Under the pieces are notes generated by a model that saw only the letters and a list, made by a program, of their open reading frames with translations, did not search any database and was not told the DNA's origin. The translations under genes were made by a program, and so were the position numbers. From Gemmatimonadales bacterium (lineage in GTDB: Bacteria; Gemmatimonadota; Gemmatimonadetes; Gemmatimonadales; GWC2-71-9), in NCBI GenBank assembly GCA_035262825.1, contig DATFSB010000207.1, positions 1 through 42,794 of the forward strand: a stretch of DNA of 42,794 nucleotides, read 5' to 3'. Positions 18,476-36,923 of the stretch are shown here, in pieces. Numbering within the stretch: the stretch's first letter is position 1; each line of letters opens with the position of its first letter.

Positions 18476-18913
18476 CTAATCGACGGCTTTGCCCTCGGGA
18501 TCGTAGGTGAGGAACCGCGAGCGACCGTTGAGCCGCAGCTGCACCTCGAACAGAATGACCGTCCCGCGCGTCACCCGCTCGGCACCGACCAGCTTTCCCC
18601 CGGCAACGCGCCGCTCCGCGGCGGCGCGCACCACCGCAGGAACCGAATCCACCGGTATCCGTTCCTCGATTTCGAGCACGGCGCCCGTCGTGCTGTAGAT
18701 CAGGTCGCGGCGGGTCTCGCCGTCGCGGCTCTCGATCTCATAGACCACTTTCCCGTCGCGCCGCTCCTTGCTCACGTTGAGCACTCGTGCAGCGGGGTAG
18801 GTCTGGTGAAAGGCGCTCGCAACCGCGGGCGGGAGCGAATCCTGTCCACTGAGACTCGCCCCGGGGAGGGCGACCGCGCCGGCGATTGCGGCGAACAAGC
18901 GGCGGACGGTCAT
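18476..18913 (-). CDS. PepSY-like (beta-lactamase-inhibitor-like) periplasmic protein, 145 aa
   Basis: Signal peptide, then two units: LPPAVASAFHQTYPAARVLNVSKERRDGKVVYEIE and VPAVVRAAAERRVAGGKLVGAERVTRG..LFEVQL. Last gene of the supercluster. Confidence 0.6.
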   Translation of the reverse strand: MTVRRLFAAIAGAVALPGASLSGQDSLPPAVASAFHQTYPAARVLNVSKERRDGKVVYEIESRDGETRRDLIYSTTGAVLEIEERIPVDSVPAVVRAAAERRVAGGKLVGAERVTRGTVILFEVQLRLNGRSRFLTYDPEGKAVD

Positions 18914-18917
18914 CGCT

Positions 18918-19754
18918 TCAGAAGTTGAACATGACGCCCACTTCGGGGGCGATGTCGGTCGCGTTGGGTGTGAATCCCCAGCCGTTGTTCAGCTTGATGA
19001 TTGCGTTGCGCGCGAACCGCCATTGCACCTCTGTGAGGAGCGAGATTTCATCGACCTGGCTGCCCTCGATCGCCGTGATGATCCGCCAGGACTGCGACAC
19101 CTGCCGCATGTACTCGATCGCGTATTCCCCGGCGTCGACCACGTGGTCTGTGTACTCCGCGCCGGCTCGGAAGGTCATGGTGCCCCAACTGAAGCCGCGC
19201 GTGAGGCCGAAGCCCGCACTGAACTCCCAGTCCTGCGTCCCGATGATGTGCCGCGTGCGCTGGAGTGGGAGAACTGTCTCGAAGAATGTGAAGACCTCGG
19301 GCCGGTGCTCGTTCTCTCGCTGCACGCGCCAGCGGATCTGTCCTTCGACGTCGCCGAGCCCCGATTCGCGGATCCGCTGCGGCACGGTGGCCGAGTCCAG
19401 ACGGTCCTTCCGGAGCTCGGCGGTGATCACCGCGGATTCGAATTCCACCATGAGATCGGGCGTCAGGCCATAAGCGAAATACAGGATCCCCTCGGACGCG
19501 CGGAACCGACCTCGGTAATCGTGATTCAGGCCATACCCCAGTTCGCTCGGCTTGTATTCGAGGTTGTGATCGGCGTACCACTCGAAGAAGGGGTAGATCA
19601 GCAGCTCGCCGTCGCGGACGTACGTGCCGAGCATCGACGTCCGGACGCCGGTGCCCCGATCACGCAGATAGGAAGGGAGGGGCTGGGTCTGCGCCGAGGC
19701 GATTGCAGGAGCTGCGGCCAACGCGATGAGCAGTGCTGCGGAGCGCCAAGCCAT
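18918..19754 (-). CDS. Outer-membrane beta-barrel protein, family not recognised, 278 aa
   Basis: Signal peptide ending ASAQ, alternating amphipathic strands and C-terminal ...VGVMFNF (terminal Phe). Confidence 0.65.
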   Translation of the reverse strand: MAWRSAALLIALAAAPAIASAQTQPLPSYLRDRGTGVRTSMLGTYVRDGELLIYPFFEWYADHNLEYKPSELGYGLNHDYRGRFRASEGILYFAYGLTPDLMVEFESAVITAELRKDRLDSATVPQRIRESGLGDVEGQIRWRVQRENEHRPEVFTFFETVLPLQRTRHIIGTQDWEFSAGFGLTRGFSWGTMTFRAGAEYTDHVVDAGEYAIEYMRQVSQSWRIITAIEGSQVDEISLLTEVQWRFARNAIIKLNNGWGFTPNATDIAPEVGVMFNF

Positions 19755-19943
19755 TCAGCCTCCCCGTTTGAGGAGCTTCTGAGCAGCGCCCACTATGAAA
19801 GTTCCTGCACCGACCAACGTTCCGTCGACGGCGTTAGCGGGCGTGTCGAACTGCCCCGCATCATACTGTTCCTTGAGTTGCAAAACCACGAAAGCGATCA
19901 CGGCGATCTTCAGTGCTTCGCCCAGGATGCTCTTCCAGCTCAT
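19755..19943 (-). CDS. Small membrane protein, 62 aa (hypothetical)
   Basis: Fits exactly between the porin stop (19954) and the barrel start (19754). It has two hydrophobic segments, and its 3' end supplies GGGGAGG before the next ATG. Confidence 0.5.
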   Translation of the reverse strand: MSWKSILGEALKIAVIAFVVLQLKEQYDAGQFDTPANAVDGTLVGAGTFIVGAAQKLLKRGG

Positions 19944-19953
19944 GGTGCCTCAC

Positions 19954-21045
19954 TCAGAAGGTGACGGTGGCGTTGAGGCGCACCCGATGCTGCCGCTCAC
20001 GCGGCGCGCTGGGCGCCACTAAATGGGGGCGGTAGAGGTACCAGGTCGCGTTCAGCAGCAGGCCACTCAAGGGGATCGCGTCAAAGGCCAGCGTGTGCGT
20101 CTCTGTGTTGGTGCCGATCGTGGTATTGTCGTGCGAAAAGGCCGCGAGCACGGCGTCGGTTTCGACGACCGCATACCCATAGCGCCAGCGCCAGTCGCGC
20201 GGGCGTTGCGCCCGGCCGACGTACAGATCGGCCTGCCAGCCGGTGTTGAGATCAGCGGCCCCGCCATTGTGAACGTAATCCCCCACTACCCGGAGCGGCC
20301 AGCGCTCTCCCAGTCCCAGGTGCTCGACGGTGAGCGTTGCATTGAGCAGATCGAAGTCCGAGAGGTAGCGACCTCCACCCGGGGCGAGCCGGTTGGTCCG
20401 GGTGTCGCCTGCATCGGCGTTGAGCAGGCTGCGGACCCGGTAGTCGTAGTACGCGGCCGCCGCGGCGACGCGCCAGGCGCTGTCGGGCGTCGCCCGCAGA
20501 GTGAGCTGGGCTCCCCCCATGTCGCTACCGAGGCCGCCGGTCTGTTGATCCACGATGAAATAAAGGCCGGTGAGCGTTCCCGTGACGCGCGCGGGACTGC
20601 CGGCGATCAATCGGCCTCCCACGCCTTGCGGGTTCACATCGCCGTCCCATACCAGCTCGGTGGGCGCGAAGAAGGGATTGTTGAATTTTCCGCCCACCGC
20701 GCCCCAGCGGCGCCGATTCACTTCGATGGCGGCGATGTCGAGACTCATCTCGAGGTCGTTGACGAACTGGCTCAGCGTCACGTCGGTCGAGTTGGGGTCG
20801 TTCCCCGATCCGGTCGCGAGTCGCGCGCGAACCGCCACGTCCTCGCGCAGCGCGTAGGCGATACCCGCGCGCAACCGCACGACCTCCTTGCTGCTCGACA
20901 GCGCGCCGTTCGCCTGACTGGTGTTCTCGTAGCGCACCCGGAAATCGCCGGTAAAGCGAAGCGGCGAGTGCGTCTGCGCCGGCGCGCCTTTCGCAGCGAG
21001 CGCCAGCGTAACGGTCGCGCACAGGACGCGCGCGCTATTCCTCAT
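19954..21045 (-). CDS. Putative porin (Porin_5-like beta-barrel), 363 aa
   Basis: Signal peptide, LRFTGDFRVRYENT opening strand and C-terminal RLNATVTF. Confidence 0.6.
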   Translation of the reverse strand: MRNSARVLCATVTLALAAKGAPAQTHSPLRFTGDFRVRYENTSQANGALSSSKEVVRLRAGIAYALREDVAVRARLATGSGNDPNSTDVTLSQFVNDLEMSLDIAAIEVNRRRWGAVGGKFNNPFFAPTELVWDGDVNPQGVGGRLIAGSPARVTGTLTGLYFIVDQQTGGLGSDMGGAQLTLRATPDSAWRVAAAAAYYDYRVRSLLNADAGDTRTNRLAPGGGRYLSDFDLLNATLTVEHLGLGERWPLRVVGDYVHNGGAADLNTGWQADLYVGRAQRPRDWRWRYGYAVVETDAVLAAFSHDNTTIGTNTETHTLAFDAIPLSGLLLNATWYLYRPHLVAPSAPRERQHRVRLNATVTF

Positions 21046-21349
21046 GAGTATCCACCGCTCCGGTCAGCGCGTCGACGCTGACTTCGGTGATGCCGCGCTT
21101 GCCGGCGATCTTGACGTCCCATACCCACACCAGTTTTCCGTGCTCGCGCAGCAGCTCCACCGCCTCGATGCTGCCGGGGAGCTTGGTGAGCGCCAGCACG
21201 CGGGCCGAATCCTCACTGATCTTGGCCTGTGCGAGGAGCGCTGGCGGAATATCGCGCTCATACGCCGGCCGCTGCGGCTGCTGGGCGGACACAGTCTGCG
21301 GTCCGAGGGCGAGCGCAAGCACGAATGCCCCTGCGACGAGATGCTTCAT
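21035..21349 (-). CDS. PepSY domain protein, 104 aa
   Basis: Internal ATG at 21349 with GGGAG SD, and a signal peptide. ISEDSARVLALTKLPGSIEAVELLREHGKLVWVWDVKIAGKRGITEVSVDALTGAV is a PepSY fold signature. Confidence 0.7.
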   Translation of the reverse strand: MKHLVAGAFVLALALGPQTVSAQQPQRPAYERDIPPALLAQAKISEDSARVLALTKLPGSIEAVELLREHGKLVWVWDVKIAGKRGITEVSVDALTGAVDTHEE

Positions 21350-21398: not shown

Positions 21399-23702
21399 TT
21401 ACGCACCGCCGCCCGCGTCGATCTCACGATGCCGCCGGCGATAGACCATGAAGATGATCGCGCCCAGCACGACGGGTCCTCCGATGGCGTACGGCAGCAC
21501 GCCGCCTGGGTTGAGCCGCGTGTACTTCGTGACGATCAAGTGCATTCCTGGGCTGGTCACCGGATGGCTCGTCGCTTCTGGCCCAGCCGGCGCCGGAATG
21601 CCGACGGTGTACACCATGAAATTGCCGTCGAGAATCGCGTTGACCCGCCAGGCGAGGCTGACCGACTGCCCGGGAGCGACCGGCTCGGTGTACTGCGTGC
21701 GCTGCGGCGACCAGTCTTCCGGGTCGACGACGTCCCCGCTCGCGTTGAGGTTGATGATGTTCATCGCCACGATGAGCGGCGGCGTCGGACTCGACCCGTT
21801 GTTGGTCAGAACGGTGTTGTATTCGATGGGAGTCCCCGCTCGGACCGTCTTGGCGGTGACGTCGATCGACAGCTGGACCTGCGGATCGGCCACCTGTTGC
21901 GCCAGCAGCGGGGCCGCTCCGAGCCCGAGCAGCGCCGCGAGGAGCAGCACGGCTGCAACCCGCTCCCGCGCCGCCTGGAAGAGGCGCGTGCGGCCGGCTT
22001 CCAGTCGCAGCTCGGGACCGGCGTACCAGAACAACAGTGCGAACGCGAAGACGGCGAACACGATGCACGACAACATCCACGACCACGCCCGGTCCAACGT
22101 CCAGTTGTTCACGAGGATGGCGGCGAGGAAGAATTTCGGCGCCGCTAACGGATTCAACCATTGAAAGAGGAGTCCCATGAATCCACCTTGGGCGTGCCCG
22201 GTGAGTTGAGTGGGGAGCAGGAAGAGGACGTACAGACACAGACTGATGAACAGGCTGGTCTTGTTCGAGTTGCACCAGAAACCCACGAACATCGCCATTG
22301 CCGTGAAGCCGAGCGTCAGCACGAGGCCGAGCCCCCCACCCCACAGCACTGCCTGGCTGAACACCTCGTCACCCTGCGACAGCACCCACATGTAGGGAAT
22401 GGCGATCAGCATCGCCACCGGCCCGGGGGACGCCGCCGCGAGGAACTTGCCGAGCACGATCTGGCGGCGACTGGTCGGGGTGAGCAGCAGCCCCTCGAGC
22501 GTGGCGCGCTCCCGTTCCCCGCTCAAGCTGTCGGCGCCGATAATGAGGCTGACGAACACGCTCGCGATCATCGCGGCTTTGGTGAGCTCGAACACCATCT
22601 CCTTCGGCGGGATGAGGCTCAGGCTCGAGTCACGCGCCGTGATGTAGGTGTAGATCCCCAGTACGATGGTGTAAGCGACGGTCAACTGCAGCGCTTTCCC
22701 TCCCACCCAGAGGTCGCTGAGCTCTTTCCTGAACACCACCCACCAGGTTGCGACGCTGCCCGCCGGTACCGGAGTGGCCAGGCGCTCGCCACGCGGTTTC
22801 GGAGCGGGAACGGGCAGTGCTGCTTCCGGCCAGACGGTGGTGGTGGGCGCCCGCCGGGACGGCCGCGGCGCTTTGGCGCTCCAGCGCTTCCAAAGGCGGC
22901 CTAACCGTGTTGCCATCGCAGCGTCGAGTCGCAGACGACGCGCGGCTAAGGCGAACAACACGAGCAGAACGATCGCGGCGAACGAACCCGCCAGGATGGG
23001 GAGATACCACGCCTCCGACACGGGCCGGCCCTGGCCCACCACCTTGCCAAGGAATTGCGCCGCTGCTTCCCATGGGTTCACGAACGTATAAAGCAGCGTG
23101 CGCCGCACCTCGATCACGGTTTGATGGATTCGCGGCCGGGACAACTCGGTCGGCAACAACAGCAGGAGGTAGAGACAGAGACTGACCATCATGCTGGTCT
23201 TGTTCGAGTTGCAGGCCATGCTGACGAGCAGGCCAATGCCGACCAACAGGGCGGCCAGGATCGTACCCAGCACGGTCCCCCACAGCAGCGCCTGCCAGAA
23301 GACCGGATTGCCTTTGGCAAGCACCGCCCAATAGGGGATCGCGATCATGAGCGCGACGGGCCAGGCGGAGAAGGCAGCGAGAAACTTGCCCACCGTGATC
23401 TGCCGCCGGCTCGCCGGGGTCAGGAGCAGCACTTCGAGCGTGGCCCGCTCCCGGTCGCCGGCGAAGGCGTCCGCCGCTGCCACGAGGCAAATGAACGCGG
23501 CGATGGCGATCGAATGCCGCACCATCTCCTGGATCATTTCGGGCACCGGCAGCAGCAAGGTGTCGGCGTTGCTGGCGAGCAGATAGGAGTATCCGCCCAG
23601 CAGCAGGCTGTAGATGAGGATCAAGTACAGTGCCTTGCCGCCGACCCACAGATCCCTGGTCTCGCGCCGGCAGACCACCCACCACGAAGTCGAAATAGCC
23701 AT
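21399..23702 (-). CDS. Fused double ABC-2 permease (two homologous 6-TM modules) + TM + Ig-like periplasmic domain + TM anchor, 767 aa
   Basis: Module 1 is aa 1-262 (WWVVCRRETRDLWVGGKAL, GDRERATLEVLLLTPASRRQI, CNSNKTS). Module 2 is aa 318-572 (WWVVFRKELSDLWVGGKAL, GERERATLEGLLLTPTSRRQI, CNSNKTS). An Ig-like domain spans aa 604-730, followed by TM VLPYAIGGPVVLGAIIFMVY. Confidence 0.85.
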   Translation of the reverse strand: MAISTSWWVVCRRETRDLWVGGKALYLILIYSLLLGGYSYLLASNADTLLLPVPEMIQEMVRHSIAIAAFICLVAAADAFAGDRERATLEVLLLTPASRRQITVGKFLAAFSAWPVALMIAIPYWAVLAKGNPVFWQALLWGTVLGTILAALLVGIGLLVSMACNSNKTSMMVSLCLYLLLLLPTELSRPRIHQTVIEVRRTLLYTFVNPWEAAAQFLGKVVGQGRPVSEAWYLPILAGSFAAIVLLVLFALAARRLRLDAAMATRLGRLWKRWSAKAPRPSRRAPTTTVWPEAALPVPAPKPRGERLATPVPAGSVATWWVVFRKELSDLWVGGKALQLTVAYTIVLGIYTYITARDSSLSLIPPKEMVFELTKAAMIASVFVSLIIGADSLSGERERATLEGLLLTPTSRRQIVLGKFLAAASPGPVAMLIAIPYMWVLSQGDEVFSQAVLWGGGLGLVLTLGFTAMAMFVGFWCNSNKTSLFISLCLYVLFLLPTQLTGHAQGGFMGLLFQWLNPLAAPKFFLAAILVNNWTLDRAWSWMLSCIVFAVFAFALLFWYAGPELRLEAGRTRLFQAARERVAAVLLLAALLGLGAAPLLAQQVADPQVQLSIDVTAKTVRAGTPIEYNTVLTNNGSSPTPPLIVAMNIINLNASGDVVDPEDWSPQRTQYTEPVAPGQSVSLAWRVNAILDGNFMVYTVGIPAPAGPEATSHPVTSPGMHLIVTKYTRLNPGGVLPYAIGGPVVLGAIIFMVYRRRHREIDAGGGA

Positions 23703-23717: not shown

Positions 23718-24551
23718 TCAGCGGGTCGCGGACAACCGAAACGGACTCGTTCCGCCCGATTGCAGACGGAGCCGTGGTCCGGCATACACGAACAGCAGGG
23801 CGACCACGACGATGAGAAACACGACCGGCCCTTGCAGCCAGTCGCCGTAGGTATGCAGGGTCTGGTTATTGACAATGAGCCGTTCCAGCAGCTGGTCGGC
23901 GGCCGCCAGCGGGTTCGAGCGCTGGAAGAACTTCCCGACTAGTCCCTTCTGCGCCCGGCCGGGTAAGAGCGCGGGCAAGAGGAACAGCAGGTACATCGAG
24001 AGACTGATGAACAGGCTGGTGCGATTGGAATTGGACCAGTAGCTGACGAGCATCCCGAGCCCCGTAAATCCGATGACCACCATCGTGCCGACGAAGACGG
24101 CGTACAGGAGCGCGGGCATGAGAATCGGATCGCCTTGGGAAACGACGAGCACGCACGGGAATGTGACGGCCAACGCCGCCGGCCACGGCGACATGCTGGC
24201 GAGGAACTTGCCGACGACGATCTGGGTCCGGCTGGCGGGCGTCAACAACAGCGTTTCCAGCAGCTCCCGGTCGCGCGCGCCGCTCAAGGTGTCGGCGCCG
24301 ATGAGCAGGCCCATGAACACACCGACGTACATGCAGGTCTGCAGGATCGACCAGACCATCTCTTTGGGGGGCGTCAAGTCCATCTGACTCCACCTGACCT
24401 GGAGATAGGTCAGCACTCCGATCACGACCGTGTACACGAGCAGCAGCGTCAGCGCTCGACCGCCGACCCAGAGCTCCTGCAGGTCGCGGCGGCAGACCAC
24501 CCACCAGGCCGCGAGACCCGGGCCGACAGGCGCCGGACGGCCGTCCCTCAC
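23718..24551 (-). CDS. ABC-2 family permease (module B), 277 aa
   Basis: I prefer the GTG at 24551, which forms a GTGA overlap with the upstream stop. Motifs: WWVVCRRDLQELWVGGRAL, GARDRELLETLLLTPASRTQI, SNSNRTS. Confidence 0.8.
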   Translation of the reverse strand: MRDGRPAPVGPGLAAWWVVCRRDLQELWVGGRALTLLLVYTVVIGVLTYLQVRWSQMDLTPPKEMVWSILQTCMYVGVFMGLLIGADTLSGARDRELLETLLLTPASRTQIVVGKFLASMSPWPAALAVTFPCVLVVSQGDPILMPALLYAVFVGTMVVIGFTGLGMLVSYWSNSNRTSLFISLSMYLLFLLPALLPGRAQKGLVGKFFQRSNPLAAADQLLERLIVNNQTLHTYGDWLQGPVVFLIVVVALLFVYAGPRLRLQSGGTSPFRLSATR

Positions 24552-25396
24552 GTGGGTCTCACCCGCAAGCGCCGCATACCAACTTCCAGCTGCAGGGACG
24601 GTCCGGCGTAGACGAAGAGCACGGCGAGCACGACGGCCGGCAGGAGAATCGGGCTGGTCATCCACAGCCACAGCTGTGAGGCCGGGGCGTCCGCCATGAT
24701 GCTCTCATGGAGCAAGCGACTGCTTGCGCCCAGCGGGTTGACCAATTGGAAGAGGTCGGACAGGCCTGTCGATTGGGCGCCGACTGTCGTGGTCGCCAGG
24801 CCCGAGTACTCGGACGGCAGAATCATGAGAAGGTAAAGGCCGATGCTGACGAGCATGCTGGGCTTGTTGGAATTGCTCCAGATGCTGGCGAGCATGCCGA
24901 TGCCGGCGAATGCAGGGGCGAGCAGCGTTCCCACGACCGGCCCCCACAGCAGCGCCGCCCGCAGCACCGGATCGCCCTTGGAGAGCACCACCCAGTACGG
25001 GATGGCGATCATCAACGTCGCCGGCCAGAGGGACAGGGCGGACAGGAATTTTCCCAAGATGATCTGCCGCCGGCTGGTGGGGGTGAGCAGCAGTCCTTCC
25101 AGCGTGGCGCGCTCGCGCTCGCCCGACACAGTGTCGGCACCGACGATCAGGCAGATGAACAATCCCACGAACACCGCAGCCTTGACGATCTCCAGCACCA
25201 CCTCTTTCAACGGCAGCAGCTGCAGCTCCGAGTTGCTCGCGAACAGGTACGCGTAGATCCCGAGCAGCAGGGTATAGATCAGGATCATGACCAGCGCTTT
25301 GCCGCCGACCCAGTGATCCCGCAGCTCCCGCCAGAACACGATGCGCCAGACCGGCGCCGCACGCGGCGCCGGTGAGCGATCGTCGGCTAAACTCAC
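24548..25396 (-). CDS. ABC-2 family permease (module A), 282 aa
   Basis: I prefer the GTG at 25396 (GTGA overlap with the ATPase stop). Motifs: VWRIVFWRELRDHWVGGKAL, GERERATLEGLLLTPTSRRQI, SNSNKPS. The longer track ORF, extending to 25747, would overlap the ATPase by 350 nt. Confidence 0.8.
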   Translation of the reverse strand: MSLADDRSPAPRAAPVWRIVFWRELRDHWVGGKALVMILIYTLLLGIYAYLFASNSELQLLPLKEVVLEIVKAAVFVGLFICLIVGADTVSGERERATLEGLLLTPTSRRQIILGKFLSALSLWPATLMIAIPYWVVLSKGDPVLRAALLWGPVVGTLLAPAFAGIGMLASIWSNSNKPSMLVSIGLYLLMILPSEYSGLATTTVGAQSTGLSDLFQLVNPLGASSRLLHESIMADAPASQLWLWMTSPILLPAVVLAVLFVYAGPSLQLEVGMRRLRVRPT

Positions 25397-26376
25397 TTGA
25401 TGCCCCCCGCCGTGAGCTGCAGGAAGACGTCTTGCAGCCGCCCGCCTTCGGGCTCGAAGCTCAAGACCGGGATCTCCGCGCGCAGCAACGTGTCGAGGAC
25501 GCGATTGTTGACAAACGGATCCGCCGCGGCGGCTTCGTCCAGCTCCACCCGCAACCACCCCGGCATGCCGCTCGCCGGCAGAACCTGGCGAACAGAGGCG
25601 ATGGTGCCGAGCTCCCGCTGGGCGTCTTCCAAGGACTCGGGCGGCACGCGAATCCGCATCATGTTCTGCTCGGTGCGCCCGATGACGTCGGCCACGGTCC
25701 CGGAGGCGACACATTCTCCGGAGCTCATGATGACGACATCGTCGCACACGCTTTCCACCTCCGGCAGGAGATGGCTGCAGAGAATGACACCCGCGCTGCG
25801 CTCTTCGGCGATCTGCTGTACCAGGCCGAGCAGCTCCTGTTGCCCACGCGGGTCGAGGCCGATGGTCGGCTCGTCGAGGAACACGACCACGGGGTCGTTC
25901 ACCAGCGCGCGCGCGATGCCGATCCGTTGCCGCATGCCGTGGCTGTACGTGCTCACGAGCGAGCGGGCGCGCTGCTTGAGTCCCACCTCCTCCAGCAGCT
26001 CCATCCCCACCGCCCGGGCATCGCTCGCGGTGCGTCCGTAGAGCTGACCGAAGTAGGTCAGGTACTCGATACCGGTCATTTGCTTCGGCAACCCGAAGCT
26101 CTCGGGCAGCACCCCGATGCGGCGGCGGATCTGATCGGGATATTCGTGGCTGATCCCGTCGACGGAGAAATGACCGGCGTCGGGCTCCATGATCGTGGTC
26201 AGGATGCGGATCGAGGTCGTCTTCCCCGCGCCGTTCGGTCCGAGGAAGCCCAGCAGCCGGCCCGCTTTGAGGACGAAGGAGAGCCCCCGCAGAGCCATTC
26301 TCGGTCCGTACGATTTCTGCAGACCTTCGGCAACGAGCACTTCGGTCCGCCGCGGAGTCGTTTCACTGTAGGTCAT
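25393..26376 (-). CDS. ABC transporter ATP-binding protein (ABC-2 type) with C-terminal accessory domain, 327 aa
   Basis: Walker A GPNGAGKTT, Q-loop, signature YSHGMRQR, Walker B VVFLDEPTIGLD, H-loop CSH. Confidence 0.9.
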   Translation of the reverse strand: MTYSETTPRRTEVLVAEGLQKSYGPRMALRGLSFVLKAGRLLGFLGPNGAGKTTSIRILTTIMEPDAGHFSVDGISHEYPDQIRRRIGVLPESFGLPKQMTGIEYLTYFGQLYGRTASDARAVGMELLEEVGLKQRARSLVSTYSHGMRQRIGIARALVNDPVVVFLDEPTIGLDPRGQQELLGLVQQIAEERSAGVILCSHLLPEVESVCDDVVIMSSGECVASGTVADVIGRTEQNMMRIRVPPESLEDAQRELGTIASVRQVLPASGMPGWLRVELDEAAAADPFVNNRVLDTLLRAEIPVLSFEPEGGRLQDVFLQLTAGGIK

Positions 26377-30002: not shown

Positions 30003-33000
30003 TCACGATTTAGTGACGCCCAACGCGGCAACGTCCGCCAGGCCGGCGGGTAATTCCACGTCGCCCCGTTGCGCGGCTGTGACTTGCAGTACCAGGTACA
30101 TCGAGGGCAGCACGAACAGGGAGATCAGCGTCGCGGTCACGAGGCCGCCCAGCACCACGACCACCGCGCCACGCACGACTTCGAGCCCGGGGCGGTCGCC
30201 CGCCAACAGCGTGGGAAGGAGCGCCAGGGCAGTGACTACCGCGGTCATGAGGATCGGCGCCGCGCGCTCGACCGCCCCGCGCATCACGAGCCCCGCGCCG
30301 AACGGCTCGCGACCCTCAGCTTCCAGCTGGTGATAGCGCGAGAAGAGCTGCAGGGTGTTGCGGATGGTGAAGCCGAGCACGATGAGCAATCCGACGAGCG
30401 ATCCGATGGAGATCGTGTCTCCGCGCGCGGCCGCCGCCGCGAGTCCGCCCACCAGCGCGGCCGCTGCGGTCGCGAGGCCGATCCCGGCGAGTCGCCAGCT
30501 CCCGATCGCCGCCTGCAACAGCAGCAGCATTCCAATCATGGCCGCCACCGCCAGCAGCAATGCCCGTTGATGGGCTGTCTCGCGCTCGGCGAACCCGCCG
30601 AGCACCTCCGCGTGATGCTCCAACGGCATTGGAACGGTCTGCAGGCGGGCCTCGATGTCACCAGCGACGGTGCCGAGATCGCGCCCGCGCACTCCGACGA
30701 TCACGTCGAGGTAGCGCTTCACGGCCTCGTGCCGAATTGCGCGGGCACTCGACACGATGCGGACTTGCGCCACGTCTCCCAGCCGGACGCTGCCGCCGCC
30801 AGGCGTATCGATCATCAGGTCGCGCACACTGTTGAGGCTGTGGCGCGTTGCCGGCTCCCCCCACACTACCACGTCGAAGACCTTTTGCTCTTCGAACAGA
30901 TTGCCGACCTGCAGTCCGGAAAACATCGTGGCCGCGGAACGCCGCACGTCACCGGGCTTGATGCCGTGACGCTGTGCCGCAGCGAGATCGACCTCGACCT
31001 CCAGCACCGGTTCTTGCGCCGGCTGATCCAGCCGCGCGCTGGTCACGCCTCCGACCTCGCTGACCGCTTTCGCCACAGCACCCGCCGCGGTGCGCAGCAC
31101 CGCATCGGCGTCGCCGTAGACGCGGACAACGATGGAGTCACGGGCCTGCGCGTTCAGCGGCTCCGTGCGCTCGCTGAGGTACGTCTCCACTCGCGGACGC
31201 AGGCCGGGGTAGCCATTGACCACCGTGCGGACGGCGGCGACGGTGCGATCGTAATCCGCCGTCGAATCGACGCTGACCCAAAGCTCGGCGGAATTGACGT
31301 TGACGACCTGGTCGCCGAAGATCGCCCGGCCCAGGTGTGCACCGACATTGGAGACGCCGCGGATGGACCGCAGCTCGAGGCTGACGCGTCCGGAGATGCG
31401 GCTCATCTCGGGCTGCGACGTGCCCGGGGCGCTGGTGAGATGGACCAGCAGGTCCCGCTCGGCGAACTTGGGCAACGACCCGCCGGAGCGCCCCACGAGC
31501 GGCAGCAGGGCGAATCCGACGATCAGAACCGGCGCGACAATCGCCACCGGACGCCACGGCCGCTGCAGCGTTCGCGCCAGAGCTCCTTCGTACCACGCCT
31601 GCAGCCGTCGGACGAACGGCACCTCGCGCGACGGCGCGGGCGCGCGCGGCAACAGCACGAGACCGAGGGCAGGCGTGACCGTCAGGGCGACCACCATCGA
31701 CGCCAGGACGGCGAGGACATACGAGCCCCCGAACGGGCGCCAGAACGCCGCGGGCACGCCGCCGAAGACGAGCAGCGGCAGCAGGGACAGCAGCAGGATC
31801 AACGTGGCGAACACCGCCGCACCGCGCAGCTCGGCGACGGCGGCGACGACGGCAGCCGCGGGCGATTCGCCGCGACCGTCGCGGAAGCGGCGCCGCATGG
31901 CGTCGACGTGAAGGATCGCGTCGTCGACGATCACGCCGAGTGCCATGAGCATCCCGCCAAGCACCACGACGTTGACCGTCGCACCGCGCAGATAGAGGAC
32001 CCAGGCGCCGGCAATGAACGAGGTGGCGATGGCGCTGATCGCAATCAGCGTCGCACGCCAGTCGGAGAAACCGATGGCGATCGCAATGGCCGCAAGCGCG
32101 AATCCGATGAGCGCGACCCAGCCGAGGTTGTGCAACGCCGATTCGATGAAGCCGGCGGGCCGGAAGATCGACGAATTCACCTCGAGGCCGGTCATACCGG
32201 GGCGCAGCTCGGCGAGGGCCGCTTCGACGCCGCGCGTCACATTGTGCAGATTCGCACCGGGGAAGCGGTCGACGACCAGGAGCAGGTTGGCGCTGCCGTT
32301 CGTCAGCGCGTCGCCGATGAGCGGCTGGTGTCCTTCGACTACGTCGGCCACGTCGCCCAGGCGCACGCCGGTGGCTTCGATCGGCACCTGCGCCAGACCT
32401 TCCGGCGACACGATCGGCAGGATGTGGCGGATCCCGAGCCGCTGATTGGCGTTGTCGATGAAGCCGCCGGTGCCTGGCGTCGAAGCCTCAACGAAGCTGA
32501 GCGACGAGACCCACAGCGCGTTGCCGGTGGTTTCGAGCACCTGCAGCAACGACACGCGGCGATCGTGGAGCCGTTTCGGATCGACCAGCACCTGCAGCTG
32601 GCGGTCGCGCTGCCCCCAGATGGCCACGTTCGCGACGCCTTGGACGCCGAGCAGGCGCGGAGCGATGGTCCAGCGCGCCAGGACCGACATCTGGATCGGG
32701 GACAACGTCTTCGAGGACAACCCGATCAACATGACCCGGCTCGTGGACGACATCGGCTGCAGCATTGTGGGCGGCCGGGACACGTGCGGCAGGGCAAACG
32801 CCTGGGTGAGCCGCTCCGACACCATCTGACGGGCTCGCATCAGATCCGTCCCAGGCCGGAAAGTCAGGACGATCGACGACAAGCCCGGGACCGATTCCGA
32901 ACGCAGCGACTCGAGCCACGGTACGCCATTGAGCAGGTCCTGCTCCAGCCCGAGCGTTACCAGCTGCTCCACCTCCTGGGCAGAGAGTCCCAGGGCTTCG

Positions 33001-33152
33001 GTCTGTATCTCGACGCGCGGCGGCGAGAATTCGGGCAGCACGTCGACCGGCAGCTCGCGCAGCTGCCGCACGCCGACGACGAGCAGCGCCACGGCGATGG
33101 CCACCACCGTCACGCGATACTTGGTGCTCCAGTTCACGAGCGAACCCATCAT
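30003..33152 (-). CDS. CzcA/CusA-like RND efflux permease (RND-2, paralog of RND-1), 1049 aa
   Basis: Internal ATG at 33152 (MMGSLVNWSTKYRV...) overlaps the upstream stop (ATGA). Motifs: PVDVLPEFSPPRVEIQTEALGLSAQEVE and TM4 ALGVIVDDAILHVDAMRRRF. The upstream 93 aa of the track ORF is Arg-rich junk. Confidence 0.9.
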   Translation of the reverse strand: MMGSLVNWSTKYRVTVVAIAVALLVVGVRQLRELPVDVLPEFSPPRVEIQTEALGLSAQEVEQLVTLGLEQDLLNGVPWLESLRSESVPGLSSIVLTFRPGTDLMRARQMVSERLTQAFALPHVSRPPTMLQPMSSTSRVMLIGLSSKTLSPIQMSVLARWTIAPRLLGVQGVANVAIWGQRDRQLQVLVDPKRLHDRRVSLLQVLETTGNALWVSSLSFVEASTPGTGGFIDNANQRLGIRHILPIVSPEGLAQVPIEATGVRLGDVADVVEGHQPLIGDALTNGSANLLLVVDRFPGANLHNVTRGVEAALAELRPGMTGLEVNSSIFRPAGFIESALHNLGWVALIGFALAAIAIAIGFSDWRATLIAISAIATSFIAGAWVLYLRGATVNVVVLGGMLMALGVIVDDAILHVDAMRRRFRDGRGESPAAAVVAAVAELRGAAVFATLILLLSLLPLLVFGGVPAAFWRPFGGSYVLAVLASMVVALTVTPALGLVLLPRAPAPSREVPFVRRLQAWYEGALARTLQRPWRPVAIVAPVLIVGFALLPLVGRSGGSLPKFAERDLLVHLTSAPGTSQPEMSRISGRVSLELRSIRGVSNVGAHLGRAIFGDQVVNVNSAELWVSVDSTADYDRTVAAVRTVVNGYPGLRPRVETYLSERTEPLNAQARDSIVVRVYGDADAVLRTAAGAVAKAVSEVGGVTSARLDQPAQEPVLEVEVDLAAAQRHGIKPGDVRRSAATMFSGLQVGNLFEEQKVFDVVVWGEPATRHSLNSVRDLMIDTPGGGSVRLGDVAQVRIVSSARAIRHEAVKRYLDVIVGVRGRDLGTVAGDIEARLQTVPMPLEHHAEVLGGFAERETAHQRALLLAVAAMIGMLLLLQAAIGSWRLAGIGLATAAAALVGGLAAAAARGDTISIGSLVGLLIVLGFTIRNTLQLFSRYHQLEAEGREPFGAGLVMRGAVERAAPILMTAVVTALALLPTLLAGDRPGLEVVRGAVVVVLGGLVTATLISLFVLPSMYLVLQVTAAQRGDVELPAGLADVAALGVTKS

Positions 33153-34042
33153 GGGGATGTCATCCCTTCCACTGGCGGCGTGTGCGCGTAAACGCTGCTG
33201 CTGCGTTGATAGCCACTCTGGTCCAGCTTTTTCGCTTCCATTCGCGCAGCGGCGAGCGCCTGCGCATCGAGCCGCTCGACCCGCGCGAGCTCCAGGACTT
33301 CCTGCGTTTTTTCGCCCGCGCCGCGCCACCCGACGCGGACATTGCCGGTGCCGCGGGCGTAGTACTTGAGCTGCGTCGCGTCCGGCTCGCCGGAGCTCGT
33401 CTCGGCGATCACCAGCGCGCTGTCGTAGCACGCGGCGGGGACACAGGTGCGCTGCCCCATCTGGTCGACTTGCCCACGATCAGTCCACTCGACCGCCGGT
33501 CCCCATCCTTCGGCATAGCTGGGCGTCCCGAGGCGCGGAGCGGCGGGCATCATGATTCCCGCGCTCGCCCCCTCGAGGCCGTGGATCCAGGGCCGAGCGG
33601 CGACGAATTTTCCGTCCTCGTACTCCTCCGGGTATTCCCCGAGGTACCACACCGTGCCCGTGGAGTCCTGCGCGTAGAAGGCCAGCTCCGCCTCCACCAG
33701 CTCGCCGTCGTTGAAGTCGGTGTCCCAGGTGACGGCGGTGCGCACGCCGCCGATGACCTTGGTGAGGTCGGTGACCGTGACGACGATGCGATGCGGGACT
33801 TTCTTGCCGTCGTCCTCGACCGCCGTGCCTTCGTAGACGAACCGCGTCCCCGGTGCGAGCGGCATCCAGGGGTTGTTGATGGCGCTGGGTCGGAGGAAGC
33901 GGCCGGCATCGAAGGCCGGCAGATCGGGCGTCTGCGGCGGTGCTGCCTGCGCCGTGCGATCGGGGGCCCGCCCGCAGGCGAGCGTCAGCGCCGTAGCGAC
34001 GGCGAGGGCGGCTGCTGCCGCGATCCTACAGGCGGTAGGCAT
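33149..34042 (-). CDS. Lipoprotein of unknown function, 297 aa
   Basis: ATG at 34042. Lipobox ALTLAC. NPWMPLAPGTRFVYEG...VTDLTKVIGGVRTAVTWD...AFYAQDSTGTVWYLGEYPEE. No MFP motifs were recognised. Confidence 0.7.
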   Translation of the reverse strand: MPTACRIAAAAALAVATALTLACGRAPDRTAQAAPPQTPDLPAFDAGRFLRPSAINNPWMPLAPGTRFVYEGTAVEDDGKKVPHRIVVTVTDLTKVIGGVRTAVTWDTDFNDGELVEAELAFYAQDSTGTVWYLGEYPEEYEDGKFVAARPWIHGLEGASAGIMMPAAPRLGTPSYAEGWGPAVEWTDRGQVDQMGQRTCVPAACYDSALVIAETSSGEPDATQLKYYARGTGNVRVGWRGAGEKTQEVLELARVERLDAQALAAARMEAKKLDQSGYQRSSSVYAHTPPVEGMTSP

Positions 34043-36923
34043 ACTGTAGCTTGACCAGCAGCTGGTTGGAGTCGAACGCGAAGCGGTCATTGAGATTACG
34101 CAGCATGTTGTGATTGAAGACGACGAACAGGTCGCCGAGGGGATTGAAGGTCCAGCGGAGCCGCGTGTTGGTGCCGAGGTTGCGGCTTTCGTTGTCGTAT
34201 TGCAGGAAGCTCGACACTTGCAAGTCGGCCGAGACGTTCACCTGCACCCGGCCGCTGTAGAGCCGCTGCACGAAGTCTCCAACCGGCAGCCGCGCGCTGT
34301 TGCGCTCCCAGCCCAGCTCCGCGGTGAGGAAAGCCGACGGCTTCATGCGCACCGTCAGCGCGAGACTGTGGAGGTGACCGCCGTAGAACGAGCCGGTCGA
34401 CCACGTCGCCTCGCCGTTGAAACGGCGTTTGGCCGCGAGCGCTCCCTGCACGGTGTAGCGGGTCCAGCGGTACGAACCCGCGGGCACGACGACCGACGTG
34501 GTATCGCTGCTGAACAGCTCGAAGTCTTCGGTCGGGCGATCGCCCTGCGGCTCGATGTCGAACTCGAAGCGGTCGCCGCTTTCCAGCTGCCAGTCGAGCG
34601 GCTTGAAGGACAGGATGTAGCTCTCCCACCGCCCATGCAGGTCGCTGATCACCGCCGGGTTGAACTCGAAGAACATCTGGCGCACCAGCGGCCACGCCGG
34701 GCGCGGCCGGAACCCGGCCTCGACCTGCCACAGCTGCACGCCCGTGCGGGGGACGAAGGACAGCGACGGGTTGAAGCGCTCGCCGATGCGCTTGTAGCGC
34801 AGCGAGACGTCCCACAAGTCATTGGGATAATCGATCATCCCGCCGAAGGCGTTGTCGCTCCCGATGTCATCGCGGTGGTTGTGCAGCCCCCACACACCCA
34901 TGATGAGATTCTTGTCGCCCTTGAATTCGGACGTCTGGAAGGTGAAGTCGGCCCCGGTCATCCAGCTGCCGGCGATGCCGAGGGGATCGCCGAAGGTGGC
35001 GATCAGTCCCGCCGACGATTCCGACAGCACGTTCTGCTTGACGCGAAACGCGCCCATCGTGGCGTCGGTCGGCAGCGAATCGACGCCGCGCGTGCGCACG
35101 GCCAGGGCGCCGACATTGGTGTTGCCCATACGACCGTTGAGCTTGCCGCCGACGGTGATGGGGATCTGGAGTTGATCCTCAGCCTCGCCCTGCAGTCCGA
35201 TGCGGCGGCTGTGAAACGCGATCAGATCCTCGTCGTTGCCGACGCCGAACTCGAAGATGTCCGCGCCTTCGAGGAAGAACGTCCGCTTCTCGGGGAACAG
35301 CAGGTCGAACCGGGTCAGATTGGTCTGCCGCGCGTCCACCTCGGTCTCGCCGAAGTCGGTGTTCACGGTGAGCGAGGCGATCATGTTGGGACCCAGCTTC
35401 TTCGTCGCATCGAGACTGCCCTGGGTCTTGTAGACCCGCTCGGCGCCGGGGGCGGGCCGGTTGGCGTTGCCGACGATGCCGGGGCGGATGCTCAGCCCGA
35501 GACCGAGGTTGAACGCCGGCAGATCGGTGAGGTGCCCCGAATGGCTCGTCTGGTAGATCTCGTAGTCGCGGTTGGCCCCGGCCCAGCGACTGACCTCCAA
35601 CAGGCGCTGGACACGGCGCTGCACGTTGAAGCCCCACCCGGTCAGGTCCTGCTTGAAGCTCAGCGTCTTGATCGGGATGCGGATCTCGACGCTCCAGCCG
35701 CGCGCATCGCGCGCCGTGGCGGCTTCCCAGATACCGTCCCAATCGGTGTTGACGTCCTCGCCGTAGGCGGAGACGAGCCCATCGAACCGCGCGCCGTTGG
35801 GATTGACGGCGAAGACGTAACCGGTGCGCCCGTCCTCGAACGGATCGAGCACCAGCATGACGTGATCCTCGAGCTCGAGATCGAAGTCGCGCGTCTTCGC
35901 GAAGGCGACGATACCGGCGGGGTTCGAATCGCGGCACAGGATGCCGAAGATCAGCTCGCTGGGATTCGCGAGCACCTTCACGATCGTTTGGCCGGCCGGC
36001 CTGGCGCCCTCGGTCGGCTCGATGGTGACGAGGTCGACGATCGAATCCGCGCTGCTCCACGCCGGCTCGTCGAGGCGGCCGTCCAGCGTCACTTCGCTCT
36101 CGAACGTACTGGCGCGCAGGGTGGTCAGCGCCGCGGCGGCGGGCGCTCCCTCCGCCGCGCCGACGTCGAACGTGGCGCTCGTCACGGGACCGAGCCCCGG
36201 TGCCTTGACGGTGAGCGAGTACGTCCCCGGCTTGTCGATACGGAGATCGCCGAACGCGGCGACGCCGGCCACGGCGGTGACGGTGGTGGTGCCCGTCAGC
36301 TCGGCCTCCTCGTCGCCCGTTCCATCGGTGATCTCGACGGTCACGTTCGCGGTGAAGCTCTCGAGCGTCTGGCCGGTGGCGTCCCGCACTGTGATAGCGA
36401 CGGTCGGCTGAATGGGTGCGCCCGCCGCGGTGTGGCTCGGCTGCACGGTGAACTCGGCGCGCGCTGCTCCAGCGCCCGACCCTCCACCCGGTGCAGCCGT
36501 CACGACGGAGGTCGCGACGGCGACCGGCGCCGCCGCGGCAGCCGGGGCCGTCACGGCGAACGGCGCGCTCGTGACCTCGCCCACGCCCTCGACGGTAGCC
36601 GTGAGCTTGTACTCGGCTGCGGCGCTGTCGATGGAGAGCGCACTGAAGATTGCGACGCCGGCGACGGCGGTGACCTTCGTCGTGCCTGAAAGCTCCGCGT
36701 CTTCATTCCCAGAACCGTCGGAGATCTCCAGGGTAACGGCGCGCGCGAACGTCGTCACGGTCTGACCGGCCGCGTCGACCACACTCACCTGTACCGCCGG
36801 TGTGATCGTCGCGCCCGCAACCGTAGCGCTCGGTTGGACGGTGAAGACGAGATGCAGCGAGTCGAGCGGGACGGCGGGGCGTGAGACGAGCACGGTGCTG
36901 AACAGCAGGATTGTGGAGAGCAT
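34026..36923 (-). CDS. Outer-membrane DUF5916/CBM9-like barrel protein with two N-terminal Ig-like repeats, 965 aa
   Basis: ATG at 36923 is preceded by GGAGG. The CBM9-like segment is LDGRLDEPAWSSADSI...DHVMLVLDPFEDGRTGYVFAVNPNGARFDG...GWSVEIRIPIKTL. The DUF5916-like segment is TVNTDFGETEVDARQTNLTRFDLLFPEKRTFFLEG. The C-terminus is an aromatic-rich barrel end, ...LQYAYRL. Confidence 0.75.
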   Translation of the reverse strand: MLSTILLFSTVLVSRPAVPLDSLHLVFTVQPSATVAGATITPAVQVSVVDAAGQTVTTFARAVTLEISDGSGNEDAELSGTTKVTAVAGVAIFSALSIDSAAAEYKLTATVEGVGEVTSAPFAVTAPAAAAAPVAVATSVVTAAPGGGSGAGAARAEFTVQPSHTAAGAPIQPTVAITVRDATGQTLESFTANVTVEITDGTGDEEAELTGTTTVTAVAGVAAFGDLRIDKPGTYSLTVKAPGLGPVTSATFDVGAAEGAPAAAALTTLRASTFESEVTLDGRLDEPAWSSADSIVDLVTIEPTEGARPAGQTIVKVLANPSELIFGILCRDSNPAGIVAFAKTRDFDLELEDHVMLVLDPFEDGRTGYVFAVNPNGARFDGLVSAYGEDVNTDWDGIWEAATARDARGWSVEIRIPIKTLSFKQDLTGWGFNVQRRVQRLLEVSRWAGANRDYEIYQTSHSGHLTDLPAFNLGLGLSIRPGIVGNANRPAPGAERVYKTQGSLDATKKLGPNMIASLTVNTDFGETEVDARQTNLTRFDLLFPEKRTFFLEGADIFEFGVGNDEDLIAFHSRRIGLQGEAEDQLQIPITVGGKLNGRMGNTNVGALAVRTRGVDSLPTDATMGAFRVKQNVLSESSAGLIATFGDPLGIAGSWMTGADFTFQTSEFKGDKNLIMGVWGLHNHRDDIGSDNAFGGMIDYPNDLWDVSLRYKRIGERFNPSLSFVPRTGVQLWQVEAGFRPRPAWPLVRQMFFEFNPAVISDLHGRWESYILSFKPLDWQLESGDRFEFDIEPQGDRPTEDFELFSSDTTSVVVPAGSYRWTRYTVQGALAAKRRFNGEATWSTGSFYGGHLHSLALTVRMKPSAFLTAELGWERNSARLPVGDFVQRLYSGRVQVNVSADLQVSSFLQYDNESRNLGTNTRLRWTFNPLGDLFVVFNHNMLRNLNDRFAFDSNQLLVKLQYAYRL
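36162..36854 (-). repeat. Internal tandem duplication encoding two ~100-aa Ig-like domains
   Basis: LVFTVQPSATVAGATITPAVQVSVVDAAGQTVTTFARAVTLEISDGSGNEDAELSGTTKVTAVAGVAIFSALSID aligns with EFTVQPSHTAAGAPIQPTVAITVRDATGQTLESFTANVTVEITDGTGDEEAELTGTTTVTAVAGVAAFGDLRID. Confidence 0.7.

Follow-up and report, generated by a model that had tools for sequence, protein, structure and literature searches.

How can a pair of resistance-nodulation-division (RND) permeases work when neither a TolC-like outer-membrane factor nor a full-length periplasmic adaptor is encoded next to them? The question is raised by a cluster of 14 genes on the minus strand (positions 18476-36923) of contig DATFSB010000207.1 from a Gemmatimonadales bacterium (assembly GCA_035262825.1), in which two RND permeases are accompanied by an ABC-2 exporter, putative outer-membrane barrels and PepSY proteins. 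The whole stretch of DNA that was analyzed, 42,794 nt with a G+C content of ~66%, is referred to below as the window. RND pumps of the AcrB/CusA type are regarded as tripartite systems belonging to Gram-negative bacteria. Gram-positive phyla were excluded outright from a family-wide survey of RND proteins (PMC10872679). Here we show that the core of the cluster is RND-2, a stub adaptor and RND-1, encoded in this order, and that this triad is a conserved module in which AcrB/CusA-type pumps are paired with a predicted pump-binding stub adaptor and, in the loci examined, never with TolC.

An RND triad built around a stub adaptor

The product of gene 4 (29543..29989, minus strand, as for all genes of the cluster), a 148-aa lipoprotein, was called a mini-lipoprotein in the first-pass annotation. 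By both fold and sequence, it is a periplasmic adaptor (membrane fusion protein) cut down to the membrane-proximal domain. In a Foldseek search with the AlphaFold2 model of this protein (predicted local distance difference test score, pLDDT, of 81; confident over residues 33-148), the best PDB matches were all RND adaptors, namely, CusB, ZneB, MexA, AcrA, BesA, TriA and an engineered SilB construct that consists of the N-terminus and the membrane-proximal domain. Stub cores of ~60 residues superpose on CusB, ZneB, MexA and AcrA with a root-mean-square deviation of 1.5-2.0 Å. At the sequence level, residues 79-136 (the C-terminal 58 aa) are 45-50% identical to proteins annotated as 'efflux RND transporter periplasmic adaptor subunit'. 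The stub profile matches many relatives with lengths of 240-340 aa in two stretches; in four of the ten longer relatives that were scanned (those four being 321-336 aa long), HlyD_D23, HlyD_3 or lipoyl domains scoring above the Pfam cut-offs lie between these stretches, the other six yielding sub-threshold or no domain matches, and the insert sits near position 70 of the stub profile. No lipoyl, barrel-sandwich or alpha-hairpin domain (HlyD_D23, HlyD_3, Biotin_lipoyl_2) was detected in the stub itself by Pfam search at E = 10, and its 148 residues leave no room for these domains. With the membrane-proximal domain as all that is left, the stub adaptor cannot reach an outer-membrane channel.

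An exact look-up of this sequence found no database record. Homologs number 669 in a 90%-clustered collection, none of them with a Pfam domain and two with a (stray) source name, and the stub adaptor family as a whole forms 2,359 clusters at 50% identity. The lipobox and the C-terminal tail are conserved in the alignment of stub adaptors. The tail is of two types, SExEFEEE, exemplified by the acidic SESEFEEE of the window protein, and GAEF(E/G)VGH, as in GAEFEVGH. The SExEFEEE tail accompanies the gene order of the window, and the GAEF(E/G)VGH tail prevails in an alternative Gemmatimonadota arrangement with an interleaved ABC block (see below).

Relatives of the locus were collected by a pattern scan of one genome per species, which yielded 282 stretches, of which 80 loci spanning at least eight phyla were kept: 24 from Actinomycetota, 22 from Gemmatimonadota, 16 from Chloroflexota, six from Planctomycetota, four from Pseudomonadota, three from Eisenbacteria, two from Bacteroidota and three others. 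The window proteins were mapped with tblastn onto these and five metagenomic loci, and the RND-stub-RND triad was found in 85 of the 85. It is intact in an isolate, Amycolatopsis sp. NPDC049868, a member of Actinomycetota, which are single-membrane bacteria; such monoderms are not known to have TolC. The stub gene always lies 5' of a gene of the RND-1 type, and the module duplicates as adaptor-RND pairs. Tandem stub and RND-1 repeats occur in Gaiellaceae (L080:6151-10297 and L083:8438-15455), L037:3991-13550 has two stub-RND pairs with the ABC block between them, and two complete triads share one contig in some genomes (Caldilineaceae and Thermoleophilaceae). The loci with repeats or double triads are L080, L083, L037, L055 and L066.

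The initial claim that the cluster lacks both a full adaptor and a TolC-like factor holds for the window and the 80 related loci (1.32 Mb). Seven TolC queries taken from canonical relatives gave no tblastn hits in this set, and seven full-length adaptor queries matched the stub gene only, through their last 70-119 residues. Among the scanned products of the rest of the window, there is likewise no OEP/TolC or adaptor gene.

The permeases flanking the stub gene are RND-2 (gene 3, 30003..33152, 1049 aa) and RND-1 (gene 5, 26403..29546, 1047 aa). Both are full-length, matching ACR_tran (PF00873) over profile positions ~3-1020 with 556 and 734 bits, respectively, against a cut-off of 28; an MMPL match of 26 bits was also recorded for RND-1. 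Described in the first-pass annotation as two RND pumps, they are 50% identical paralogs on either side of a single stub adaptor gene, and this combination makes one machine more likely than two; two independent pumps were rejected as a reading in view of the identity, the single adaptor and the invariable pairing of the adaptor with the downstream RND type.

The nearest solved structures of RND-1 are ZneA (E = 6e-106) and then CusA (6e-86), ahead of multidrug pumps, and TIGR00914, the model of the heavy-metal efflux (HME) family of CusA/CzcA, scores best for both permeases, yet at 397 and 556 bits, below its cut-off of 701 bits. Judged from sequence, RND-1 falls into a clade that has no name and adjoins the HME pumps. 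The segment AIGVVVDDAIIDVEN in transmembrane helix 4 (TM4) of RND-1 stands where ZneA has DFGIIVDGAIVVMEN, so that the HME-type TM4 signature (DFG..DGA..VEN) is lacking, and the proton relay is AcrB-like, with a DD pair (VDD...R) and R940, unlike that of ZneA and CzcA. The permeases, originally described as CzcA/CusA-like, are thus nearest to CzcA, ZneA and CusA but fall short of the HME family cut-off.

Residue conservation was computed over 70 downstream (RND-1-type) and 64 upstream RNDs. D417, D418 and R940, together with E624, E632, E670 and E674, are invariant in all 70 RND-1 orthologs, and E424/N425 and R140 are invariant or nearly so. When RND-1 is aligned to ZneA with HMMER, these glutamates correspond to D602, E610, D654 and D658, which probably form the proximal Zn(II) site of ZneA. 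Among the upstream RNDs, glutamine occupies position 624 in 45 of 64, residues 670 and 674 are variable, and the VEN motif of TM4 has degenerated and is often missing. RND-1 is the conserved and probably the catalytic subunit. Its docking domain is kept in full relative to TolC-dependent relatives (18 gap positions in 1043).

Several known systems resemble the triad in part. The HME-RND pumps (ZneCBA, CzcCBA, CusCBA/SilCBA) share with it the RND fold, the closest solved sequences, the acidic cleft, two-component regulation and, in CusB, SilB and ZneB, the membrane-proximal domain homologous to the stub, and canonical members of the RND-1 clade possess TolC, adaptor and RND. They differ in that the triad has no outer-membrane factor, an adaptor devoid of barrel, lipoyl and hairpin domains, two paralogous RND genes with products scoring below the TIGR00914 cut-off, the AcrB-like relay (VDD...R) in TM4/TM10 in place of DFG...DGA, and a distribution that extends to monoderm phyla. 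MdtABC and MuxABC likewise combine two paralogous RND genes with one adaptor gene, with one subunit type thought to be specialized, but the adaptor is full-length, TolC or OpmB is included, and the order is adaptor-RND-RND, whereas here it is RND-adaptor-RND and the heteromer is putative. MmpS-MmpL (HAE2) and HpnN are RNDs that function without an outer-membrane channel, including in Actinomycetota, and a gene for a ~140-aa membrane-anchored accessory protein immediately precedes the RND gene; however, they belong to another RND family, MmpS is not an adaptor homolog, and the cargo consists of lipids or siderophores. The only reduced adaptor named in a 2015 review of adaptors is BesA of the Borrelia BesABC system, which lacks the alpha-hairpin (PMC4446572). 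BesA resembles the stub in its reduced domain content but retains the lipoyl, barrel and membrane-proximal domains along with a TolC-like partner, BesC, whereas the stub has the membrane-proximal domain only and no outer-membrane factor. The passages of a 2026 review reached by term search name no further reduced adaptor.

The Gemmatimonadota form of the module

In the window, the triad is embedded in a longer gene series. Recomputation of open reading frame (ORF) starts and stops, with gene coordinates following the start codons chosen in the first-pass annotation, recovered all 14 minus-strand genes, and the 13 junctions computed from these coordinates matched the earlier list exactly. From gene 1 to gene 7, the junctions are a 17-nt overlap, an ATGA overlap, a 13-nt gap, an ATGA overlap, a 26-nt gap and a GTGA overlap (the ATGA and GTGA overlaps being 4 nt each); from gene 7 to gene 14, they are a GTGA overlap (4 nt), gaps of 15 and 49 nt, an 11-nt overlap, and gaps of 10, 0 and 4 nt. 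AGGAGG lies in the 13-nt gap 5' of gene 4 and GGAGGA in the 15-nt gap 5' of gene 9. The tight junctions are also found in relatives, and no terminator-like site was detected between the cluster genes, the nine terminator-like matches found against 7.8 expected being background. The domain calls made earlier were borne out by Pfam and NCBIfam searches of the cluster products, in which the 148-aa and 297-aa lipoproteins and the 62-aa and 278-aa proteins had no match even at E = 10.

Immediately downstream of RND-1 are the genes of an ABC transporter: the ATPase (gene 6, 25393..26376), permease A (gene 7, 24548..25396, 282 aa), permease B (gene 8, 23718..24551, 277 aa) and a double permease (gene 9, 21399..23702, 767 aa). 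The ATPase matches ABC_tran with 96 bits, is DrrA/GldA-like by NCBIfam, and has as its best PDB matches the nucleotide-binding domains of lipid-transporting ABCA proteins and NosF (E = 5e-43), which places it in the ABC-2 (type V, DrrA/NosF/ABCA-like) class. Four ABC2_membrane_2 modules were identified, one in each of the single permeases (72 and 54 bits) and two stretches in the double permease (110 bits). The occurrence of an ABC_tran ATPase and ABC-2 permeases in one cluster defines an exporter of the ABC-2 type; the NCBIfam scores of its parts are far under every equivalog cut-off. The double permease carries a C-terminal extracytoplasmic Ig-like domain (weakly NEW3-like) and a final transmembrane helix, and its sole PDB relative is NosY, matched weakly (E = 0.09) over the full length. 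The exporter shares the ABC2_membrane_2 permease family with the type V systems NosDFY, GldAFG and DrrAB, and NosY and NosF are its PDB relatives, but it has no NosD, NosL or GldG partner, four permease modules per ATPase, and an extra Ig-like domain. Given the weak NosY match and the lack of NosD- or NosL-like products among the cluster proteins scanned with Pfam and NCBIfam, the locus is not a member of the NosDFY group.

Upstream of RND-2, gene 2 (33149..34042) encodes a 297-aa lipoprotein (lipobox LTLAC) of a family with more than 3,146 homologs, none of which has a Pfam domain or a name. It is predicted to form an open beta-barrel: the Foldseek top hits of its AlphaFold2 model (pLDDT 83) are YmcC-like proteins, DUF1849, LolA3, RseB and MucB (E = 2e-6 to 1e-2, with TM-scores of only 0.34-0.48). 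The modeled protein thus resembles the open barrels of LolA, RseB, YmcC and DUF1849 at the level of fold only, and comparison with PDB sequences gave a single, non-significant match (2okq, E = 0.095). A 472-aa protein encoded 3' of an RND gene of Hymenobacter (see below) was also compared with this lipoprotein and is not related to it.

Three products of the cluster are putative outer-membrane barrels, with signal peptides and alternating-hydrophobic C-terminal outer-membrane protein signals (..YAYRL, ..ATVTF and ..VMFNF). The 965-aa product of gene 1 (34026..36923) consists of two Ig-like domains, a middle domain and a DUF5916 (PF19313) C-terminal region; the Pfam match scores 37.4 bits against a cut-off of 22.6 and covers only profile positions 46-100 of 572, and a homolog in locus L004 was also recorded as PF19313. 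The second is the 363-aa porin encoded by gene 11 (19954..21045), a Porin_5 (PF16930) family member (80.4 bits against a cut-off of 22) whose gene is a variable insert in the cluster, and the third, the 278-aa secreted product of gene 13 (18918..19754), is conserved in 8-12 Gemmatimonadota loci. The DUF5916 and 278-aa proteins have no PDB sequence match, and a literature search for 'DUF5916' found no paper.

Other triads of diderm bacteria also lie near barrel genes. A 320-aa barrel of the Phenol_MetA_deg family is encoded alongside the triads of Planctomycetota and Eisenbacteria, and a Porin_O_P porin alongside several diderm triads; the loci with such companions are L013, L019, L023, L029, L031 and L072 (~2-6 kb 3' of RND-1) as well as L032, L037, L044, L062 and L070. 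The small barrel recruited seems to vary from one diderm lineage to the next. A kinship of the 278-aa protein to barrels of the MetA-pathway type is no more than possible, its profile-profile comparison with the barrels beside Planctomycetota triads giving a probability of 12.6%, and the idea was dropped.

The remaining genes encode small proteins. Gene 12 (19755..19943) specifies a 62-aa conserved small membrane protein with two hydrophobic segments, detected by tblastn in ~10 Gemmatimonadota loci at 46-95% identity. Gene 10 (21035..21349) encodes a secreted 104-aa PepSY protein (29.2 bits against a cut-off of 24), found among relatives only in the close ones L001, L006, L007 and L014. The secreted 145-aa product of gene 14 (18476..18913) matches PepSY_like with 26.3 bits, just under the cut-off of 28.3, and aligns over its full length with annotated PepSY-like proteins encoded beside the Hymenobacter relative of RND-1 (30% identity, E = 8e-14).

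The linkage of these components differs among phyla. Counted over loci of at least 18 kb, the ABC-2 ATPase and permeases, both RNDs, the 297-aa lipoprotein and DUF5916 are present in eight of the eight Gemmatimonadota loci, Porin_5 in six of these eight, and the ABC-2 block in four of the nine Chloroflexota and none of the 12 Actinomycetota loci. In the Amycolatopsis isolate, an ABC-2 transporter (ATPase 46% and permease 31-40% identical to those of the window) lies on the opposite strand ~2 kb 3' of the triad (L017:15348-17529, minus strand), so that some ABC-2 linkage may exist in Actinomycetota too, the zero count reflecting stricter criteria. The 297-aa lipoprotein family is represented beside the triad, on either side, in 43 of the 85 loci, from Gemmatimonadota, Chloroflexota and Actinomycetota.

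Two arrangements were distinguished, that of the window and another with the order lipoprotein-RND-ABC-permeases-stub-RND-Porin_5-278aa-62aa-DUF5916, in which the ABC block lies between the first RND and the stub/RND-1 pair. The block is interleaved and the gene order permuted in many Gemmatimonadota and Chloroflexota loci, and the DUF5916 gene can occupy either end of the cluster among Gemmatimonadota. The same content in shuffled order points to functional coupling, and an ABC block inserted inside the RND set is not expected of independent operons. The gene set is found again in related bacteria of soils, and its assembly in the window is no accident of neighborhood. In the relatives L006 and L001 (shared proteins ~66-99% and 66-95% identical to those of the window, respectively), Porin_5 is missing between the PepSY and 62-aa genes (L006:9318-9375 and L001:14211-14271), whereas it is present in the window and L007, which indicates a recent insertion or loss within a cluster that is otherwise collinear. 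The unit is therefore modular, with Porin_5 and the PepSY genes as variable add-ons. The proposal of one translationally coupled unit accordingly survives as a functionally linked gene set, but not as a fixed block of 14 genes, and the neighborhood search showed that the blocks are linked in Gemmatimonadota, while in Actinomycetota and Planctomycetota the triad can be found without the ABC and outer-membrane blocks.

Cargo, proposed mechanism and alternatives

Clues to the cargo come from canonical relatives that are 38-55% identical to RND-1. Plasmid-borne RNDs of Methylomonas, Hymenobacter and Sphingomonas (51-55% identity, same motifs) belong to ordinary TolC-adaptor-RND sets with an OmpR-type two-component system; the Hymenobacter set also includes two PepSY-like proteins and two PAP2 phosphatases, and the Sphingomonas set PAP2 and DedA. 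More distant relatives (~40% identity) are encoded beside GT2, GT39 (ArnT-like) and GtrA genes inside a Tn3 element in Rhodanobacter, beside a DedA/PAP2 fusion in Burkholderia, beside ArsR in Acidithiobacillus, and beside MerR and a cation transporter in Acetobacter. In Hymenobacter, Sphingomonas, Burkholderia and Rhodanobacter, the neighbors are OmpR-type two-component systems together with modifiers of envelope charge (PAP2, DedA or ArnT-like). The acidic cleft positions are kept in all canonical relatives, except for methionine at position 670 in Acetobacter. Both kinds of neighbors, metal regulators and genes that lower the negative charge of the envelope, point to a cationic stressor. It was stated at the outset that the substrate cannot be read from the sequence, but several lines, namely, the kinship to ZneA and CusA, the cleft glutamates, the adaptor tails and these neighbors, point to cations, and a cation is the most likely substrate. 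Among the neighbors clustered across the 80 loci, regulators, porins and an fn3 protein recur, and no metal-specific or lipid-synthesis genes do; the fn3-containing protein, secreted and 247 aa long, is found in 10 loci.

We favor the view that the cluster is the elaborated Gemmatimonadota form of a widespread TolC-less RND module which, under two-component control, removes toxic cations, probably metal ions, from the envelope. As a whole, we give this explanation somewhat less than an even chance. RND-1, in which the proton relay and four glutamates of the periplasmic cleft are invariant, would be the working subunit, and RND-2, with its degenerate cleft, would join it in a mixed trimer as a partner that contributes structure or specificity, as in MdtB2C. 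The stub adaptor could clamp the cleft, its Glu-rich or Glu/His tail passing cations to the glutamate cluster in the manner of the CusB and SilB tails. The ABC-2 exporter may bring the same cargo from the cytoplasm or the inner leaflet to the periplasm, making up a two-step relay of ABC-2 and then RND, like that of a P-type ATPase and CzcCBA. The LolA-like 297-aa lipoprotein and the PepSY proteins would serve as periplasmic accessories, the non-TolC barrels (DUF5916, Porin_5 and the 278-aa protein) would provide passage across the outer membrane, and the divergently encoded NarL-type two-component system would turn the cluster on. A precedent for an RND and a primary pump in one metal operon is czrCBA-zntA of Caulobacter, a regulated operon that joins a periplasm-to-outside RND to an ATP-driven cytoplasm-to-periplasm exporter, but in that operon a P-type ATPase serves as the primary pump and the RND is an ordinary tripartite one (PMC4176598).

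Several observations weigh against a metal-exporting machine of this kind. Both RNDs score under the HME cut-off and their proton relay (DD and R) is AcrB-like, not CzcA-like, and the equation of the ZneA-aligned residues with a metal site is tentative. P-type ATPase, CDF, metallochaperone and MerR/ArsR genes are neither present in the window nor recurrent in the 80 stub-adaptor loci, and no Rfam element or metal riboswitch was found in the cluster leader. A LolA-like fold, as in the model of the 297-aa lipoprotein, usually binds acyl chains, and the usual cargo of ABC-2 exporters is lipids, polymers or drugs. The PAP2, DedA and ArnT-like neighbors of the canonical relatives fit cationic peptides as well as metals. 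The mixed trimer, the function ascribed to the adaptor tail and the exit through the barrels are inferences, and the DUF5916 and 278-aa proteins themselves are putative barrels, assigned from sequence features.

The same machine might instead handle a cationic organic toxin, such as polymyxin-like lipopeptides, other cationic antimicrobial peptides, aminoglycosides or polyamines, the ABC-2 exporter and the membrane-sensing kinase acting as a peptide-antibiotic detoxification module and the LolA-like lipoprotein binding the acyl tail. The canonical relatives of RND-1 lie beside PAP2 phosphatases, DedA and ArnC/ArnT/GtrA-like genes, which are classic polymyxin and cationic-peptide resistance functions, and the acidic cleft and adaptor tail, the fold of the lipoprotein, the DrrA-like ATPase, the AcrB-type proton relay and a kinase with a six-helix membrane domain and no obvious periplasmic sensor all agree with such a cargo. 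Yet the closest solved homologs are metal pumps, some clade members are found beside MerR, ArsR or a cation transporter, and a tight cluster of four invariant carboxylates would suit an ion site better than a pocket for peptides, so we regard an organic toxin as unlikely. Export or insertion of an envelope lipid, glycolipid or other hydrophobic constituent of the surface, as by MmpL/MmpS or HpnN and with no detoxification, is slightly less likely still. The ABC-2 exporter would then flip or extract the molecule and the RND pair would detach it from the membrane, with the LolA-like lipoprotein as its carrier and the barrels placing it in the outer membrane. The triad does lack an outer-membrane channel and occurs in single-membrane bacteria, like lipid-exporting RNDs; a small accessory gene stands 5' of the RND gene, just as the MmpS gene precedes the MmpL gene; and the LolA/RseB-like fold, the match of the ATPase to the lipid-transporting ABCA domains, and the dedicated barrels fit as well. 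However, genes for the biosynthesis of lipids or polysaccharides are not among the recurrent neighbors of the triad, the RNDs are complete permeases of the AcrB/CusA type that share 51-55% identity with plasmid pumps dependent on TolC, the invariant glutamate cluster is unexpected on a lipid path, and the canonical relatives are borne on plasmids or transposons near mer genes, a location that suggests a resistance cargo.

The 14 genes could also be several ordinary transport operons, the RND pair using an adaptor and TolC encoded elsewhere and the stub being a minor accessory. This is compatible with the triads free of ABC and outer-membrane blocks in Actinomycetota and Planctomycetota, with the coming and going of Porin_5 and PepSY genes among close relatives, and with the fully retained RND docking domain (18 gap positions in 1043), and the absence of TolC and adaptor was seen at the level of loci, in the window and 80 others, not of the whole source genome. 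But the gene set persists in eight of eight long Gemmatimonadota loci despite shuffling, with the ABC block inside the RND set; stop and start codons overlap at five junctions (the 17-nt, two ATGA and two GTGA overlaps) with no intergenic terminator; monoderm isolates carry intact triads; and 1.32 Mb of loci contain no TolC or full adaptor. We therefore hold separate operons to be very improbable, and the export of metal ions is favored over all three of these alternatives.

Literature searches found no described system of this combination, as had been suggested when the cluster was first noted: neither the stub-adaptor triad, its spread in monoderms and its coupling to ABC-2 and DUF5916, nor combinations of PepSY, RND, ABC-2, porin, PAP2 and DedA as in this system, were described in the literature searched. 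All components come from known superfamilies, so the finding does not amount to a new category. It is possible, if doubtful, that the triad is a distinct, unrecognized class of RND machine that needs neither TolC nor a bridging adaptor and is active in Actinomycetota, Chloroflexota and double-membrane bacteria, to which Gemmatimonadota have added an ABC-2 exporter, a LolA-like lipoprotein and non-TolC barrels. Such a class would be a new kind of trans-envelope export route and would supply the first functions for DUF5916, for the lipoprotein family of more than 3,000 members, and for the PepSY-like proteins. If confirmed, the module would bear on the role of the membrane-proximal adaptor domain alone and on how RNDs work in single-membrane cells, and would represent a second solution to the crossing of the outer membrane. 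It ties four families of unassigned function to a testable process and is present in the cultured Amycolatopsis isolate.

Regulatory flank and neighboring genes

On its 5' side, the cluster is separated by a 300-nt divergent region from genes for a sensor histidine kinase with a PilS-like membrane domain of six transmembrane helices, GAF, HisKA_3 and HATPase domains (37225..38949, plus strand), and a NarL/LuxR-type response regulator with Response_reg and GerE domains (38952..39590, plus strand). A homologous kinase (70-84% identity) occupies the same divergent position in the Gemmatimonadota relatives L007, L008, L014, L047 and L074, and the response regulator is kept beside the cluster in relatives at 79-92% identity. 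This pair probably controls the cluster. Intergenic alignment of the window with L007, L008 and L014 revealed a conserved leader block (AAGTTATAC...TATCC...TATGGTG; 37020..37060, minus strand) ~100-140 nt 5' of the first ATG, which is likely to be a promoter or operator. A sigma-70 consensus promoter scan gave no sites, this consensus being uninformative for the phylum.

On the 3' side, a convergent gene (16292-18472, plus strand) for a 726-aa fusion of a thioredoxin/AhpC-like domain and a calcineurin-like phosphoesterase ends 3 nt from the last stop codon of the cluster. A 55%-identical homolog lies directly 3' of RND-1 in a Thermomicrobiales locus (L021:9262-10149), and weaker homologs (31%) lie close to the triad in three further loci (L044, L052 and L062), two of them from Bacteroidota and one from Roseiflexaceae, so this gene may be loosely associated with the module.

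Elsewhere in the window are genes for the N-terminus of a TonB-dependent receptor (CarboxypepD_reg and Plug; 1-1026, minus strand), an MlaE permease (4317-5204, minus strand), a patatin-like phospholipase (7294-8163, minus strand) and an Nramp-family metal transporter truncated at the end of the window (42017-42793, minus strand), for which scans of the window showed no link to the cluster. A CrcB-family gene (ORF 10554-11009) has a fluoride riboswitch at its 5' end (10541-10615; RF01734, 53 bits against a cut-off of 34, E = 5e-12) and is followed by a DUF190-like ORF (~11020-11413) and a PAP2 phosphatase gene (11410-12009); together they make up an ordinary fluoride-response unit (10541-12009, plus strand). 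The riboswitch overlaps the start of the longest CrcB ORF as well as the 5' end of an NAD synthase gene on the opposite strand, which places the true starts of both genes further in.

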